Below, in pieces: positions 3,134 through 40,734 of a stretch of 40,824 bases of DNA (its first letter is position 1; each line of letters begins with the position of its first letter). This DNA comes from a virus. Taxonomy: Duplodnaviria; Caudoviricetes. Made by a program: the position numbers and the translations under genes. The stretch spans positions 1-40,824 of IMG/VR virus record IMGVR_UViG_3300037714_000079. One strand, 5' to 3'. The notes below the pieces were generated by a model, which saw only the letters and a list, made by a program, of their open reading frames with translations, was not told the DNA's origin and did not search any database.

Positions 3134-3410
3134 CACCACGGACACACTAGTCGGGCTATCAAAAGCGCTCGACGTCTACCTGAAGTCAGGCATGGAAGTG
3201 TCTATCGGCTACTTCCGTAATGCGAACCATCTCTCTGGAAAACTACTGGTCGCCAACGACGTCACCTTTTGTGGTGGCGCTAATGACTATTACCAGATGC
3301 CAGAGACAATTCTCCCGTGGGTGGACATTAAGGAGATGGTTGGGGAGGGGTTCGGCGCGGAACGTATTACTCAGGTCGCTTGGGCAGCTACGCCGAAGTG
3401 GTATCGGTGA
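3126..3410 (+). CDS. Hypothetical protein
   Basis: GGAGGAG SD; tight packing with neighbours. Confidence 0.7.
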   Translation: MINTTDTLVGLSKALDVYLKSGMEVSIGYFRNANHLSGKLLVANDVTFCGGANDYYQMPETILPWVDIKEMVGEGFGAERITQVAWAATPKWYR

Positions 3411-10738: not shown

Positions 10739-11493
10739 CCGAACCTCGCATTTTGGCCTGGGATATCGAGACATCGCCGAACCTGGCCTACGTCTGGGGC
10801 TTGTTCAAGCAGAACGTTAGCCTTAACCAGATTAAGGACCGTGGCGAGATCATGAGCTTCGGGGCCCGGTGGGTCGATGAGCCACCGAAGAACATCATGT
10901 TCTTCGGTGGCCCGAAGAAGTCTGACTACCGACGGATGATCCGAGCCGCCTTCAAGCTGTTCGATGAGGCTGACGCCCTAGTGTCCTGGAACGGGAAGGG
11001 ATTCGATACCAGGTGGATGCAGCGGGCATTCCTCTTGGAAGGTCTTGGCCGCCCGTCGGCTCATAAGGAAATCGACCTTATGCTGACGTCCCGGAAGCAC
11101 TTCCGGTTCGTCAGCTCGAAGCTCCAGAACGTCAGCCAGGAACTCGGGTTGGCTGGGAAGGTCCAGCATTCCGGGTTCGATCTCTGGCTTCGCTGCATGA
11201 AGGGTGACCCCGCTGCCTGGGAAGAGATGAAGGAATACAACCTTCAGGACGTCAACCTACTGGTTGACCTCTACGACAAGATGTTGCCGTGGATCGGGTC
11301 GGAGCACCCGAACCGCAATCTCTACTCGGAAGTTGACGGTTGTCCTCGCTGCCCGGCTGGCATAGAGGCGTTGAAGCCCCGGGGTTTCCGGCAAACGATT
11401 GTCGGGGCCTACCAGCGGTATCGGTGCGACGCGTGTGGGTCTTGGTCGTCGGAGGGTAAGCGCGTCTTCGGGGTTGATATTCGTGCTGCCTGA
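10735..11493 (+). CDS. DnaQ-like (RNase H fold) 3'-5' exonuclease with C-terminal Zn finger
   Basis: DIET, WNGKGFD, YNxQDV; CPxC...CxxCG. Confidence 0.85.
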   Translation: MTEPRILAWDIETSPNLAYVWGLFKQNVSLNQIKDRGEIMSFGARWVDEPPKNIMFFGGPKKSDYRRMIRAAFKLFDEADALVSWNGKGFDTRWMQRAFLLEGLGRPSAHKEIDLMLTSRKHFRFVSSKLQNVSQELGLAGKVQHSGFDLWLRCMKGDPAAWEEMKEYNLQDVNLLVDLYDKMLPWIGSEHPNRNLYSEVDGCPRCPAGIEALKPRGFRQTIVGAYQRYRCDACGSWSSEGKRVFGVDIRAA

Positions 11494-11496
11494 TTA

Positions 11497-11510
11497 CTTG
11501 ACATGTGCCA
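11497..11510 (+). promoter_or_regulatory. Stoperator-like repressor site CTTGACATGTGCCA
   Basis: 13/14 match to the other copies, 3 nt after a stop codon. Confidence 0.7.
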
Positions 11511-11518
11511 GTGGAAGG

Positions 11519-12103
11519 ATGAATGAGGCTATTGTCGCCGAGGTCGATAAAGCCGCACTCGTGGTCTCCCGCTCGTGGACAGGGGTACTGGACTTTGAGG
11601 ATATTCGCAACGGCACATGGGTGAAGATTCTGGAATCCCCGAAAACGCTGGAATCCCTAGAGTCCTACGAGGAAGGCCAACGGGGTCGGGTGCTCAGGGC
11701 TATCGCCCGGCAATGTGTCGGCGCGGAGCTGGCCGACCAAGAGGTGTTCTCCGCTCAGGTCTACTACTCGACGGATGACGTCCGGAGAATCCTGTCGAAC
11801 GGGGGAGCTATGGATATCCCTGGGTCTCCGTCACACGTCGAGTGGATCGACGCTCAGGAGGCCATGAAGGCCATTAGCCCACGGCATGCTGAGGTGTTGT
11901 TCTCCAGGTACGTCGCTGAGGACTATGACGCCTCAGCTGGGGTCTCCAGGATGAATCTCACCCGGGCTAGGGACGCCTTGGCCGTTGCCATGAATCGTCT
12001 CCGGCGAGAAGCGGAGATGGCCCATGAAGGCCCTGGTTCACGTCGGGTGCTGTCCAACTCGGCAACCCATTCACTGTCCAAGAGAGAAGGGGGCGACCGG
12101 TGA
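11519..12103 (+). CDS. Sigma-factor-like DNA-binding protein (cluster A type)
   Basis: W..ILE.P, YSxDDVRxIL, region-4-like helices, C-terminal HEGPGSR; start at ATG 11519. Confidence 0.6.
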   Translation: MNEAIVAEVDKAALVVSRSWTGVLDFEDIRNGTWVKILESPKTLESLESYEEGQRGRVLRAIARQCVGAELADQEVFSAQVYYSTDDVRRILSNGGAMDIPGSPSHVEWIDAQEAMKAISPRHAEVLFSRYVAEDYDASAGVSRMNLTRARDALAVAMNRLRREAEMAHEGPGSRRVLSNSATHSLSKREGGDR

Positions 12104-12264
12104 CGACTCTGTTTGATATCACGGTTACCCGAGGAGATATGTACCAATCGTGGGTGGTGCCGGAACTGTTTCCGGATGAGCGACCCGCGCTGATCGCCAA
12201 TTGGTCAGCGGATGACCGAGAAATGTACTGCGGAGGAGAATTCACCCATGGCTATGGCTGCTGA
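12100..12264 (+). CDS. Conserved small protein, 54 aa (MYxxxVxPELFP...NWSxDDxEMYxGG), not in the ORF track
   Basis: Read by hand; GTGA overlap; resembles a small cluster-A-type gene as recalled. Confidence 0.7.
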   Translation: MTTLFDITVTRGDMYQSWVVPELFPDERPALIANWSADDREMYCGGEFTHGYGC

Positions 12265-12714
12265 CTTCGACCCGTTCAAAGACGAAGAGGAGAACGAAGT
12301 GGCGGACCACAATGAAATCTCGGTGACCTTCAAGGCCCACGGGGGCTTTGACGCCCCGTGGATCGTTGTCCGGGGTAGTGCGGAATACCTGGCGGATCTG
12401 TTCAAGATCAAGGATTTCGATGGCCGAGTGTCGACCCTGATGAATCGAGTGGTGGACCTCGATAGCCACTACAAGAAGGTTATTGGTGGCGGGGCGGCCC
12501 CAAAAGGCTGAGGCCGGGTCAACCCCCAGGCAGTGTAGAGCCGCCTGAGTGGGCGGGTGAGCCACCTGAATGTGACCACGGCGAGAAGCGTAGATACAAG
12601 TCGACGCTTAAGAAGAACGGCGAAGTAGGCCACTTGTTTGAGTGTGCCGCCGTCGATTATCCCAACCCTGGGCAGTGTGACGCTCAGTGGCTGAACAAAC
12701 CTAAGGAGAAATAA
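12248..12714 (+). CDS. Conserved protein with C-terminal CxH..C..C Zn-ribbon reached by a -1 frameshift; short form ends at 12511
   Basis: N-terminal TFKxxxxFDAPWIVVRG; C CCA AAA heptamer at 12499-12505; -1 frame encodes CDHG..YKS..K.G..LFEC..QCDAQWL. Confidence 0.7.
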
Positions 12715-12715
12715 T

Positions 12716-13126
12716 ATGGCTTGGGAAACCGTCGAGGACAACGGCGGAGGCGACTACGACGAGCGTGAGCGCCTCGCCACAAAAATCGGCAGCAAGATCG
12801 AGGGCACCTATCGCCGAGTAGGGGACTTGGTTGACGGTAAGTACGGACCGGTCCGGTGGGTTGAAGTAGACACCCTGGACGGCGTTGAGGGCAGCTTTCC
12901 TCTCCGGTCTAAACAGCACCTTACGGTGCTTGAGAATGCCCTCGAAGATGAATTGCTGACTTCGGGTGTTCAGGTTCGGTTCTCGTTCGACGCCAAGGAC
13001 ACCAACAGCGGCAACACGATGAACAAGTTGACCATTCAGGTCAACCGGGGGGGCGGGAAGGCCCCGGCTAAGAAAGCGGCCCCGAAGGCTCAGGAGCCGA
13101 CGTCGGACGACGAACCAGATTTCTAA
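12716..13126 (+). CDS. Putative single-stranded DNA-binding protein
   Basis: Beta-rich OB-like core, low-complexity linker, acidic tail ending DDEPDF; directly upstream of PolA. Confidence 0.65.
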   Translation: MAWETVEDNGGGDYDERERLATKIGSKIEGTYRRVGDLVDGKYGPVRWVEVDTLDGVEGSFPLRSKQHLTVLENALEDELLTSGVQVRFSFDAKDTNSGNTMNKLTIQVNRGGGKAPAKKAAPKAQEPTSDDEPDF

Positions 13127-13136
13127 GGAGTAACCC

Positions 13137-15236
13137 ATGCGTGCGCCGGAAGGCACTCTCACCCTGGACATCGAGACCCATTCGGCGCACCTTATCTACA
13201 CACTGCCCCCTCAGGAGTTCTTCCGTCTCGGGGGTTATCGGTGGAAGGGTGATCCCGAAGTCACAATCACCACCGACCTCGAAGAGATGCGGGACGTCAT
13301 CCGCCGAGCCCGATGGATCGTCGGTCATAACATCCACTTTTTCGACCTGAAGGCTATCTTCGGGCATCTCTCCAATGAGCCTGTGAAGTTGGCGATGGAG
13401 GGTCGGGTATACGACACGATCATTCATGCCGGTCTGGTCAACCAAACCCCCGCCGAATGGCTGGATCGACACGGGTCCTTTCATAAAGCCCCTAAGGACG
13501 GCTGGAAGCCGAAGCAGATGATGCCTTGGTTCGGGTTGGATGAACAGGCCCACCAACTAGGTATCAGTGGAAAGACGGATGACCTTAAGAAGCTAGCTGC
13601 TGAGTTCGTGGAGCCGGGGGAGGATATCTCCCTGGGGTTCGGTCGAATCCCAGTAGATGACCCTCGATACCGGGCCTACCTCGTAGGTGACGTTGAGGCA
13701 TCAGAGCGGGTAGCCGCCGGGCTGGTCAAGCGAGGCAAACTCTCCGGTAACGGAGAGCGCTACGACGGCAGTCGTGGGTACACGCGGGATTACGTCGGTT
13801 ACCCGATGCGGGAACAAGAGATAGCCGCCCGAGCGGCGGTTATCGGGTCTAATGGCTGGAGGGTGTGGATTGAAGGGGCCACCAAACGCCGGGATGAGCT
13901 AGCCGCCCGCCGAGACGTCATTGTTGGGAAGCTGGCAGAGGATTACGGCCTGCCAACTGAGAGCGATAACCCTTGGTCAACTAACGACGGCAAGCGGGTC
14001 ATCGTGTCCACGTTGGCGGATGCGGGTATCACCCCGAAGACGGTCGACTGGCCCAAGACGGATGGATATAAGAACCGAGACCGCGATCGACTGAAGGCTA
14101 TCGAGAAAGCTAAGGCCCTCAGATCCTCGGTGTCGGCTTGGAAACACGAACTCCTTGCCGGTATAGCGGGGAACGGCCGGAAGCTCTCCAAGAGCCAGAT
14201 AGCGGCCCGCAATCGTTGGGTAATGGAGAAGTCCGCTGAGGCTACGCACTTAGAGCGCGAGCCACTGCCCCCGTGGTACGGGTTGTCTCTTGGTGGAGAG
14301 ACGCTAATCCAGCTGACTAAGGGTACGAGTGCCGAGGATCTAGGAACTGCCTTGGCGGAGGTCAAGGGACAGCGATCGCTTGCTCAGTTGACCCTAGACA
14401 GCCTCCACCCGGATGGCAGGGTTCACCCGGAGATCACCATGCTCCAGGCATCAGGCCGATGGTCAACCACCAAGCCTGGGCTGACCGTGTGGACGGCAAG
14501 GGGCCCCGGGGCCATCGAGAAGCAGTACTACCTACCTGATTATGCCGACGAGGTGTTGTGCACTGTCGACCTTAGCCAGGCCGATTCCAGAGGAATCGCC
14601 GCTGAATCGGGGGACACAGAGTTCGCCGTTAGGTTCGAGCCTGGGCAGGATGGCCACCTTCTCAACGCCATAACCACTTGGGGTTATGACGTAGTCATGG
14701 AGTCCGAAGAGACCCAGGCCCACTACCGGCAAGCTGTTAAGCCGATGTCCCATGGTCAACCCTATGGTGGTGGAGCGGCCACCCTGGCAGCGATGGCCGG
14801 GGCTCCGCTGGAAGACGCAAAGCGGTTCTGTGATGGCATGGTGCGGGACTTCCCGCGTTTGGCTGAATGGCAAGACGAGATCCGGAGATTCGCTCGTCGG
14901 CACGGCTACGTCGTCAACGACTGGGGCCGTCAGATGCGGGTAGATAAAGACAGGGCTCACACCCAAGGGCCCGCCTACATGGGCCAGAACGTCACTCGGG
15001 AAATCATGTGCGACATCTTGCTGTCGTTCCCGTTGCCGGTTCTCCGGCGGACGAAGGCTCAGATTCATGATGAGTTCGTGTTCTCCATTCCTCGGAAGAA
15101 CGCGAAGAAACACCAAGCGTGGCTAGTTAACGCTATGTCTACAGTCTTCGATCCCAAGCACGGTCGAGGACAACGAATCGAATTTCCGGCGTCGTCCGGG
15201 GCGCTCGGAGACAACTGGTACGAGTGCAACCATTAG
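13137..15236 (+). CDS. polA: Family A DNA polymerase with 3'-5' exonuclease
   Basis: Exonuclease motifs DIET, GHNIxxFD, YxxxD; polymerase motifs SGRWST, DLSQADSR, RxxxKxxxHGxxYG, IHDE. Confidence 0.92.
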   Translation: MRAPEGTLTLDIETHSAHLIYTLPPQEFFRLGGYRWKGDPEVTITTDLEEMRDVIRRARWIVGHNIHFFDLKAIFGHLSNEPVKLAMEGRVYDTIIHAGLVNQTPAEWLDRHGSFHKAPKDGWKPKQMMPWFGLDEQAHQLGISGKTDDLKKLAAEFVEPGEDISLGFGRIPVDDPRYRAYLVGDVEASERVAAGLVKRGKLSGNGERYDGSRGYTRDYVGYPMREQEIAARAAVIGSNGWRVWIEGATKRRDELAARRDVIVGKLAEDYGLPTESDNPWSTNDGKRVIVSTLADAGITPKTVDWPKTDGYKNRDRDRLKAIEKAKALRSSVSAWKHELLAGIAGNGRKLSKSQIAARNRWVMEKSAEATHLEREPLPPWYGLSLGGETLIQLTKGTSAEDLGTALAEVKGQRSLAQLTLDSLHPDGRVHPEITMLQASGRWSTTKPGLTVWTARGPGAIEKQYYLPDYADEVLCTVDLSQADSRGIAAESGDTEFAVRFEPGQDGHLLNAITTWGYDVVMESEETQAHYRQAVKPMSHGQPYGGGAATLAAMAGAPLEDAKRFCDGMVRDFPRLAEWQDEIRRFARRHGYVVNDWGRQMRVDKDRAHTQGPAYMGQNVTREIMCDILLSFPLPVLRRTKAQIHDEFVFSIPRKNAKKHQAWLVNAMSTVFDPKHGRGQRIEFPASSGALGDNWYECNH

Positions 15237-31914: not shown

Positions 31915-32550
31915 CTAGTAGATGCCGACAGGCGGCAAGAGCTGGTCATTAAGGAACTCCCGCACCATCGGATCGACGGCACGATAGAACTGCAACGGAT
32001 CGGCGGGGTTCTCTGTGTCCGAATAGAACGACGGCTGTTGGGACCAGCCGCTAGATTCCCGCTTCCATACTCGCCGGAGAACGGCGGATGCGGCTAGCTT
32101 GAACTGAGCATCTACAGACGCCGTGTCAGCAACTCGGCCGGACGTGTAGGAGACAATAAGGTTCCGTCGTCCCGCTCGGAAGGTAGCGTCTACGCCGCTC
32201 ATGCGGCGATAGACGAAGCTGTACGGGTTGCCTGGTTCCAGTAGGTACCCGTTAGCGGGCTTGGTGCTGTCCGTCTCTGCCGTAAGGACTACTTCGCCGC
32301 CGTTTTGCCATTCCGAGAATGAGGAAATAGCCGTCGCGTAGTGCTGGTCTAGCATGATGATGCTGGCCCCGCCGTCGTGGCGCTCAGCAGTGACCGAACG
32401 CTGTACGACGTTGCCACAAAGGGAGTCAATACGCCGAGAGATGCCTGATACGTATAACGCCAAGCTGTCATCCTGGGTGCTCGTACCCGACGGCAGGTTA
32501 ACGGCCGACTTGGCCTCAGCCAATGTCAGCAAGTCAGTAGCACTAGCCAC
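31915..32550 (-). CDS. Head-to-tail adaptor
   Basis: LLTLAEAK..IDxxCG..ExHDG..VxYTxG. Confidence 0.75.
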   Translation of the reverse strand: MASATDLLTLAEAKSAVNLPSGTSTQDDSLALYVSGISRRIDSLCGNVVQRSVTAERHDGGASIIMLDQHYATAISSFSEWQNGGEVVLTAETDSTKPANGYLLEPGNPYSFVYRRMSGVDATFRAGRRNLIVSYTSGRVADTASVDAQFKLAASAVLRRVWKRESSGWSQQPSFYSDTENPADPLQFYRAVDPMVREFLNDQLLPPVGIY

Positions 32551-33931
32551 GTATCTTCACCTCCGGCCATTTCTCCTCGAATACTTTCTGGTCGTGCTCT
32601 AGCACGGCCCGCATAGATTCCCAATCGCCGGTCTTACTTCCGCCGTCGATGTGCGTGCACTTGGCGTCCAGGGCGATCGCCGTCTTGCCACCCGCGTAGT
32701 GCACGGACGTGAACAAGTCGTTATCCCCGAAATACCATTGGAGGTTCTTCGGGAACCGGTATCCGGTCTCGCCCTTGAGAGCGAACGCGAAGCCCGCAAA
32801 GCCCCCCGTGCCGTCGTAACGACCCGCGCACATGTCCTCGGTGTACTGGGTACCCGTACCCGCGCGGGCGTCGTAGTTGGCGCACGTAGCCCCAACTAAG
32901 GGGTCGTGACGGAGCGGGTGGACCAGGCTACTAACAAACGTAGGGCCATCGATCGTGATGTCGTTGTTCAGGATCACGACGTTAGACAGGTTGGACTCAG
33001 CACTAGCCTTTTCAAGGCCCCTGTTCCACATCTCGTGGATGTTCTTACCAGAGGCAGCCAAGATAATACCGCCACTCTCCCGGATACTGCCAAGCGGCAG
33101 GGAGCTACCGTTGTCGAACACGAAGATCTTGGCGCACTCACCTTGGTAGGCGAGTTCCTGAACCAGATGTTCGGTCATCTCCAGTTGCTCGAATGTATCG
33201 ATCTTCACTGGAATGACGACGTAGTTCGGGATGTCCGCGAGCTGAGGCTGTGAACCCTCGGTCAGGTAGGCCGTCTTGTGATGACTCGTCTTGACCGCAG
33301 TATTGACGTACACGCCAAAACCGAGGTCTTTAGCTCGCTTGAAGAACGACAAGTCCTCGCCGAAGAATCGACCCTTGATCTCCGCTTCGTGGAACCACGG
33401 GCGAGCCGAGTCCTTGAAAGCCAGCTCCATCTCAGCCAGCGCGAACCGGTGGACCGCGAAGAACGCGGCCCCCGTGCCGTCACACTCAACGACAGAATCA
33501 CGTGGGTAGTCATACACGGGGGCACACCCGACGGCCGTAGGCGTCTCCACCCAACGGTAAATGGTCGGGAACTGCTCCAACTTCATGGAGTTCTGGGGGC
33601 CAACGCCGTCCCGGCGCATACCAAACGCGAGGCCACCCATGATATAGGTGCCCTCTTCATGCGCCGAGTCAATCAGCCTGTCCACTGCGTCAGCATCAAA
33701 TCCCATGTCTGAGTCAATGAACACCAACCAGTCAGCGCCCGTCTTGAGGAAGGCGCGAACGGCATCATTGCGAGCGTCGGTGATTCGACCGGCCCCGCAT
33801 TCGTGATCCGTGAAACCCCGGAGACGCTGCTTGTTCAACAGGTCGTGGTGCATGAGGTTTCGAATTGACTTGTGGTAGGCCCACGACGGGTGGCCGTCGG
33901 TAAGAGTCCCGATGATGTACGTGTCCGACAT
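32543..33931 (-). CDS. Tandem two-domain GT-A (GT2-like) glycosyltransferase
   Basis: Domain 1: RN..WLVFIDSD..GAAF..GEDLSF..H.K. Domain 2: VVIPV..DNGS..WNRG..LNND..GDND..H. Confidence 0.85.
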   Translation of the reverse strand: MSDTYIIGTLTDGHPSWAYHKSIRNLMHHDLLNKQRLRGFTDHECGAGRITDARNDAVRAFLKTGADWLVFIDSDMGFDADAVDRLIDSAHEEGTYIMGGLAFGMRRDGVGPQNSMKLEQFPTIYRWVETPTAVGCAPVYDYPRDSVVECDGTGAAFFAVHRFALAEMELAFKDSARPWFHEAEIKGRFFGEDLSFFKRAKDLGFGVYVNTAVKTSHHKTAYLTEGSQPQLADIPNYVVIPVKIDTFEQLEMTEHLVQELAYQGECAKIFVFDNGSSLPLGSIRESGGIILAASGKNIHEMWNRGLEKASAESNLSNVVILNNDITIDGPTFVSSLVHPLRHDPLVGATCANYDARAGTGTQYTEDMCAGRYDGTGGFAGFAFALKGETGYRFPKNLQWYFGDNDLFTSVHYAGGKTAIALDAKCTHIDGGSKTGDWESMRAVLEHDQKVFEEKWPEVKIRG

Positions 33932-39924: not shown

Positions 39925-40187
39925 TCCCTCGAAGCTGGCTCGCTACCCTTGGACACGAAGCTGATTGGTTTCTGACGTCGGCCCCGGTTGCAAGGGGCAC
40001 ATGCCGCCCGGTGGTTGCTCGGGTCGAGGATGGGGCCACCCATCTCCAACGGGATGATGTGGTCTAAGTCTTCGGCCTTACCGGTGCACCTCGGTCCACG
40101 GATCTGGCATTCGTAGTTATCCCTAGCGAAGACCGCGCTTCGCGCGCGGTCTCGGATCGACTGAGGGATATCGGACCATCTACTCAT
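39918..40187 (-). CDS. HNH endonuclease (HK97 gp74-like packaging accessory)
   Basis: RDxYxCQ..C..DHIIP..GG..N.RAACxxCN. Confidence 0.88.
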   Translation of the reverse strand: MSRWSDIPQSIRDRARSAVFARDNYECQIRGPRCTGKAEDLDHIIPLEMGGPILDPSNHRAACAPCNRGRRQKPISFVSKGSEPASREW

Positions 40188-40734
40188 CGCCTTCGGTCAC
40201 GACTTCCAGCAATCGGGTGTCCGCAACGGAGACGAACCCGCTGCATCCGGTGTTGGTGATGACTGCCCGGCGTACGGCCGTAACCACGTCTACGGCACCC
40301 CACGGACCCGTGTCACCGAGGTAACCCAGGGCCTCACCCATGCCGCTACCGATGACAGCTCGGGGACTGTGGTCCGCGATGACGGCCCCGTCGCTGTAAA
40401 TCGTGGCGAACCGGCCACGGTTCGCGATCACCGCGTAAACCGAGTCTTCGTCCTCAACCTCATACTTAGCGAGTGCCTTACGGATAGCAGGGACCACCCG
40501 AGTAACCACGTGCCGCATCCAATTGGGCTCTTCCTTTGGACGCCACGTAGGCCACGAAGCCTCGTACTTCAAAATCTGCGCTGATCGGAGGCTACCCGCA
40601 CACCCGATGACGTATTTACCTTCGATCCAGATTTTGGGCTCCGAGGTTTCCAGCTGAGTGCCACCTAGGGAGACTTGCCGATCAGCCGCCATGACTACAC
40701 GTTTACCGACCTTGGCGGCGACGATTACGGTCAC
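40180..40734 (-). CDS. Ntn-hydrolase, proteasome-beta/HslV-like threonine peptidase
   Basis: After Met removal: Thr1, Asp17, Lys33 at exact spacing; AGS and IGSG motifs. Confidence 0.8.
   Translation of the reverse strand: MTVIVAAKVGKRVVMAADRQVSLGGTQLETSEPKIWIEGKYVIGCAGSLRSAQILKYEASWPTWRPKEEPNWMRHVVTRVVPAIRKALAKYEVEDEDSVYAVIANRGRFATIYSDGAVIADHSPRAVIGSGMGEALGYLGDTGPWGAVDVVTAVRRAVITNTGCSGFVSVADTRLLEVVTEGDE

Follow-up and report, generated by a model that had tools for sequence, protein, structure and literature searches.

Introduction

The replication-linked gene dnaX carries an X XXA AAR heptamer with a stop codon directly after it and yields a longer and a shorter isoform that differ by a C-terminal domain; a rarer, reversed form has a transframe long product (PMC5009743, accessible part). 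The same part of this source describes the lambda-like tail assembly chaperone pair G/GT, in which a conserved -1 slip near the end of the short ORF gives a minor, C-terminally extended product, as well as the Ig-like extensions of capsid and tail proteins (T3, T7 gene 10, A2, A118 and PSA), optional C-terminal domains which are in frame or frameshifted depending on the phage. Functional phage frameshifts are placed there in tail and capsid genes, cro of A2 being an apparently irrelevant exception. According to the available portion of PMC10885494, the SEA-PHAGES set used with PRFect contains 2,476 joined genes, of which 2,397 encode tail chaperones and 79 hypothetical proteins.

The gene described here lies in the window, the whole stretch of 40,824 nucleotides that was analysed, a 40.8-kb record from an uncultured virus, with an estimated completeness of 69%. 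Like dnaX, it combines a replication-linked gene, an X XXA AAR heptamer and an adjacent stop with two isoforms, predicted in this case, and its nearest dnaX version is the reversed form. Unlike dnaX, it is a phage gene of an unrelated family, its heptamer reads C CCA AAA or G GGA AAA where dnaX has A AAA AAG, and an upstream Shine-Dalgarno sequence is not consistently present at the split loci of its family. With G/GT it shares a short ORF ending close to a conserved site of -1 slippage, proposed in this case, but it belongs to the replication module, where its neighbours are gp52-like and PolA genes rather than those for major tail and tape measure proteins, and a separate chaperone-like gene is present elsewhere in the window. 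As with the Ig-like extensions, the C-terminal domain is optional and in frame or frameshifted according to the phage; in contrast to these extensions of virion proteins, the domain is predicted to be a zinc finger, and the protein carrying it is presumably not part of the virion.

Results and Discussion

A gp49-family gene split over two frames

The split gene and its neighbours are arranged as follows.

11399 to 12264, plus strand: L5 gp53-like and gp52-like genes, upstream (PF25684, PF17468)
12232 to 12236, plus strand: Shine-Dalgarno-like GGAGG, 11 nt 5' of the ATG at 12248 (seen in the sequence, role presumed)
12248 to 12511, plus strand: ORF of 87 aa in the zero frame, encoding the N-terminal half of a gp49-family protein (PF25690 profile positions 38-118)
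12499 to 12505, plus strand: putative slippery heptamer C CCA AAA, read as Pro-Lys; 7/7 split loci have this heptamer or G GGA AAA
12509 to 12511, plus strand: zero-frame stop, one codon past the heptamer (0-1 codons at 7/7 loci; TGA, TAA or TAG)
12513 to 12531, plus strand: weakly supported candidate for a 3' stimulatory hairpin, about -9 kcal/mol, separated from the heptamer by 7 nt
12505 to 12714, plus strand: -1 frame extension, 69 aa, Pro-rich linker and predicted zinc-finger domain (PF25690 profile positions 127-188; pN/pS 0.19-0.35)
12571 to 12678, plus strand: predicted C-H-C-C zinc ligands, Zf-GRF-like (codons at 12571, 12577, 12643 and 12676)
12716 to 13126, plus strand: 136-aa gene with an acidic C-terminal tail, downstream (no Pfam or PHROG match)
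13137 to 15236, plus strand: family A DNA polymerase (PF00476)

The short ORF ends with GCC CCA AAA GGC TGA and holds the heptamer in its own frame, exactly as the first-pass annotation had read it. Behind it, the -1 frame is open from 12466 to the stop at 12712-12714, one nucleotide 5' of the ATG at 12716. It provides 69 codons past the shift, against about 70 estimated earlier, and the impression that it has no obvious start of its own holds as well, no ATG, GTG or TTG being found in this frame upstream of the first Cys codon in the window.

Since both parts match PF25690 in order and above the cut-off of 27 (38.1 bits for the zero frame, 32.4 bits for the -1 frame), they evidently represent two halves of a single protein of the L5/D29 gp49 family (PHROG 364), which has a similar cluster A-like neighbourhood. 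A tblastn search with the zero-frame and -1 halves recovered 229 and 315 phage records, respectively. The first-pass annotation expected cluster A homologs to combine the two parts in a single ORF, and this was borne out by Vanisoa gp50, a 188-aa gene that includes both halves; likewise, the five cultured phages fetched for the family all carry one long ORF, unlike the split lineage of the window. Among 27 locus rows, 23 were long, three split and one interrupted by a contig end, and the Cys domain is present in some, not all, of the long forms. A metagenome scan added at least two distant fused loci, and a scan with a DNA pattern gave three matches, two of them unrelated. In 32 records of cultured-phage DNA only short matches were obtained, none spanning the frameshift site, and none of 48 candidates proved to be a longer version of the short protein. 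Four distant homologs (L030, L039, L047 and L048) associate the same N-terminal domain with another, helical-looking C-terminal part lacking Cys.

PHROG 364 bears the label 'ribonucleoside reductase class II'. It was rejected for the gp49 family, whose proteins of 155-188 aa are not full-length reductases. The annotated reductase of Vanisoa is a neighbouring gene of 2 kb, and the label on PHROG 364 and on RefSeq cluster A gp49 genes was apparently borrowed from this neighbour.

Conservation of the slippery site

Seven distinct split loci with DNA were compared: the window and L002 (IMG/VR), those of Amycolatopsis orientalis DSM 43388 (L017), A. halotolerans (L018) and Saccharopolyspora indica (L019), and L038 and L049 (IMG/VR), the pairs L013/L017 and L049/L050 being counted once each. 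The -1 product or the downstream gene led to four of the loci, and short proteins led to two more; none was picked for its heptamer. An in-frame heptamer nevertheless occurs at all seven, C CCA AAA at four and G GGA AAA at three, with the zero-frame stop 0-1 codons further on. Conservation of heptamer and stop in relatives was one of the checks proposed by the first-pass annotation, and split, heptamer and stop are all kept at 7/7 loci.

Heptamers of this kind are rare in the surrounding genes. The 23 other genes of the window (8,192 codons) contain no in-frame V_VVA_AAA and six other X XXY YYZ heptamers, and 12,894 flanking codons from six loci contain none of the C CCA AAA / G GGA AAA type. 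In flanking ORFs, called mechanically, only one of 115 other Pro-Lys or Gly-Lys pairs uses CCA or GGA followed by AAA. Protein searches point the same way. Out of 69 distinct matches, 42 are at most 125 aa and 27 are long; Gly or Pro, then Lys and 0-2 further residues form the C-terminal end of 40 of the 42 short proteins (the two exceptions look like truncated long forms) and of 0 of the 27 long ones. The residue before Gly or Pro could supply the first base of the heptamer in 40/40 cases, including 8/8 informative ones, where Gln, Glu or Lys precede only Gly, and Asn or Asp only Pro. Split loci and short proteins are related, and these counts are not independent events. Because of the 0/12,894 background and of the switch between CCC and GGG, the heptamer appears to be conserved beyond chance and beyond protein constraint, and the split gene at 12248-12714 is confirmed as a real feature.

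The best reading of this locus, and a highly probable one, is a programmed -1 ribosomal frameshift giving isoforms of 87 and 155 aa, the latter with a predicted zinc finger. The first-pass annotation had proposed such an event as likely, and the conserved heptamer and stop together with the constrained -1 frame support it. Ribosomes would slip back one base at C CCA AAA, tRNA-Pro (tRNA-Gly in the relatives) and tRNA-Lys re-pairing in the -1 frame, to make a short and a long protein, of which the 87-aa form would be the major product. The use of AAA rather than AAG may suit hosts with a second Lys tRNA.

A different possibility, which we regard as improbable, is that two separate genes exist and that ribosomes re-initiate at a non-standard start, one that overlaps the stop codon, to make the zinc domain. 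A CTG of the -1 frame does overlap the stop at three of the seven loci (window, L002 and L019), and in three or four other loci a GTG, TTG or ATG follows 12-14 codons further on. Yet the remaining four loci have CTA, CTA, GTA or GCG in this place, leaving no common start; the variation of this codon and the lack of commonly shared downstream starts thus argue against re-initiation, which also leaves the rare-codon heptamer and the CCC/GGG switch unexplained. Slightly less probable still is slippage of RNA polymerase, which would add a base at the C4A4 or G3A4 run, so that the fusion would arise by normal translation. Orthologues can indeed switch between ribosomal and transcriptional mechanisms, as for dnaX, but polymerase slippage is known from runs of A(n>7) or T(n>8) (PMC3711429, accessible part), against only four A here, and the conserved feature is codon-phased.

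Possible stimulators of the proposed frameshift

For ribosomal frameshifting in E. coli, the available part of Sharma et al. (PMC4066793) counts V_VV.A_AA.R as one of the most efficient -1 motif classes, places 3' stimulators 5-8 nt downstream and attributes about 0.3% to the best heptamers without a stimulator. In bacteria a 3' structure is an optional element of such sites, as is an upstream Shine-Dalgarno-like stimulator. A short GC hairpin, perhaps together with the nearby stop, may assist the slip at our loci. Such a hairpin begins 5-7 nt past the heptamer at 7/7 loci and ranks in the top 1-8% of the local background at each of them (combined p about 7e-4, three lineages), with a 22-nt window picked after seeing the data; with 30 nt the ranks are 7-18%. 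It is no stronger than synonymous recodings in 5/5 tested sequences (fraction 0.40-0.78), covariation is mixed, its one covarying pair being broken in 2/5 sequences, and the 75-nt region downstream of the window heptamer folds no better than shuffles (z -1.1). Shine-Dalgarno-like pairing upstream is strong at one, moderate at two and at background level at three of six loci (background fraction 0.02-0.30). The slippery site is well supported; as the hairpin does not exceed recodings, covariation is mixed and upstream pairing inconsistent, a stimulator is only plausible. The two stems named earlier are implausible in this role: GGC-TGAG-GCC starts directly after the heptamer, with a 0-nt spacer, and GGGT-CA-ACCC would need a 2-nt loop.

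Coding status of the -1 frame

In an alignment of five loci, variable columns of the -1 frame are distributed as 23, 15 and 53 of 61 over the three codon positions. Values of pN/pS reach 0.19-0.35 in this frame for 10/10 pairs, compared with 1.2-2.6 in the other two frames, and none of the five loci has a stop in it; the -1 frame is thus evidently under purifying selection. An HMM built from 20 fused proteins matches the -1 frame at six of the seven loci, with E values between 4e-21 and 3e-6, and none of the other frames. The exception is L038, where (3234-3314) the heptamer is directly followed by TAG, with a 5-bp hairpin, and the -1 tail is 24 aa long and lacks Cys; the frameshift signal seems to have outlived the zinc finger there. 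In the stop-lost P0060, from another subgroup, the zero-frame tail fits the domain when read in -1 (score 31-46, shuffles at most 16.5) and is not compatible with it in +1.

We consider it very unlikely that only the short protein is made and that the -1 frame is a decaying remnant: the missing finger of L038 and the diverged one of L049 would suit this idea, but purifying selection and the absence of -1 stops in 5/5 compared loci speak against it. An assembly or sequencing error in the window contig, the least probable explanation, is untenable for the family because independent loci, six besides the window and three of them in isolate genomes, carry the same split. For the window contig itself, comparison with contigs from two DNA runs gave no difference in one, probably the source of the record, and no coverage of the site in the other.

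Evolution and distribution

Both quick trees place a subclade of seven fused proteins (151-154 aa) among the split rows, the support being unstarred. These close relatives (P0016 and P0053-P0058) are fused in frame and keep Pro-Lys-Ala at the junction in their protein sequences, which is why some constraint on Pro-Lys may act at the protein level. Relatives in frame without a slippery site had been named beforehand as evidence against a frameshift; this outcome did not occur, although this one close subclade is fused in frame. An AU test on 33 selected rows rejects trees in which one branch separates the split from the fused forms (p 0.0048) and therefore indicates at least two switches between them, the trees themselves being unrooted, built from about 80 columns and silent on the direction of the switches.

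Short forms were detected in 2/401 genomes of the family-level sample, 2/147 of Amycolatopsis and 1/30 of Saccharopolyspora, corresponding to three distinct genomes; a further Amycolatopsis is on record with one short protein. In the order and class samples (401 genomes each), only the centre genome was positive.

Genomic context

The window encodes a serine integrase, a repressor, a primase/helicase, endonuclease VII, an exonuclease and PolA. On account of these gene matches (integrase, repressor and replication genes), the phage is probably a cluster-A-like temperate actinophage; a host among the Pseudonocardiaceae is our guess.

The 136-aa gene downstream of the split gene, which may be SSB-like, has no informative family, Atlas or PDB match, and its ubiquitin matches were judged spurious. 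A gene of similar size and type is found 3' at 7/7 split loci, where the -1 frame stop either lies 0-3 nt before the start of this next gene or overlaps it. Such an arrangement would permit translational coupling.

Three other genes of the window, all on the minus strand, deserve mention. Upstream of the tape measure gene lies a 117-aa gene (29918-29423) with an open -1 frame behind it; this frame closes shortly before the tape measure gene begins, an arrangement typical of G/GT pairs of tail chaperones, and no obvious X XXA AAR heptamer is present near the stop of the 117-aa gene. A glycosyltransferase-like gene (32543-33931) lies between the capsid and head-tail adaptor genes, and a gene for an HslV-family peptidase (40180-40734) is located upstream of the terminase gene.

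The predicted zinc-finger extension

Three Cys of the extension are invariant in 25/25 rows and the His is kept in at least 90%. An AlphaFold model of the C-terminal domain of the window protein (pLDDT 80) gave the Zf-GRF fingers of NEIL3, APE2 and ZCCHC4 as the top three matches with Foldseek (best probability 0.97, TM 0.59, E 0.24) and again with VIA-align (Z 3.3-4.0; rmsd 2.7 over 44 residues at Z 4.0), and the best PDB match of the sequence profile was NEIL3 (E 0.19), all weak scores. Zf-GRF domains have a three-stranded antiparallel fold. The extension has in common with these fingers the GRF-type C-H-C-C ligand spacing, a preceding Pro-rich stretch and a C-terminal Trp. It departs from them in the GRxF motif (PMC9369019, accessible part), replaced here by G-H-L-F with His at the arginine position, and PF06839 (Zf-GRF) is not matched, a single one of 25 members reaching E 0.61. 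Given the weak scores, this replacement and the missing Pfam match, the modelled domain looks Zf-GRF-like without being a Zf-GRF member. This refines the Zn ribbon of the first-pass annotation. The APE2 finger binds single-stranded DNA and needs its G-R pair (PMC5861430, available part); binding of ssDNA by the finger predicted here is a guess, with the gene neighbourhood as support. The N-terminal domain, in the model of a fused relative, is predicted to form a beta-hairpin and two helices, and the fold search gave no clear match for it (best Z 4.6).

From the fold and the neighbouring genes, we tentatively suggest that the finger might bind single-stranded nucleic acid during phage replication or recombination, and that the slip might set the finger-bearing share of the protein, as dnaX does for tau and gamma.

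Conclusions

The mechanism proposed is a classical, textbook one, and what would be new is its occurrence in a non-structural phage gene family. Our literature search, which covered mostly papers outside subscription and the main texts rather than the supplements of PMC3711429, PMC4066793 and PMC10885494, found no frameshift report for the gp49 family. In this possibly widespread lineage of actinobacterial phages, frameshifting could possibly, though doubtfully, serve as a replication rheostat setting the balance between scaffold protein that bears a Zf-GRF-like, nucleic-acid-binding finger and scaffold protein that lacks it; it may also feed ribosomes to the next, possibly SSB-like gene, and the gene may have been switched between fused and split forms more than once.

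Gene callers miss the second half of the gene, and the split lineage shows up in protein searches only as short proteins. The Zf-GRF-like finger offers a structural lead for the common, unannotated gp49 family of cluster A, and the family provides a natural comparison of fused and split alleles. With prophages present in culturable strains of Amycolatopsis and Saccharopolyspora, namely A. orientalis DSM 43388, A. halotolerans JCM 13279 and S. indica KCTC 29208, the frameshift is testable. A conserved frameshift in a replication-module gene would widen the picture of phage frameshifting, so far centred on tail and capsid genes.
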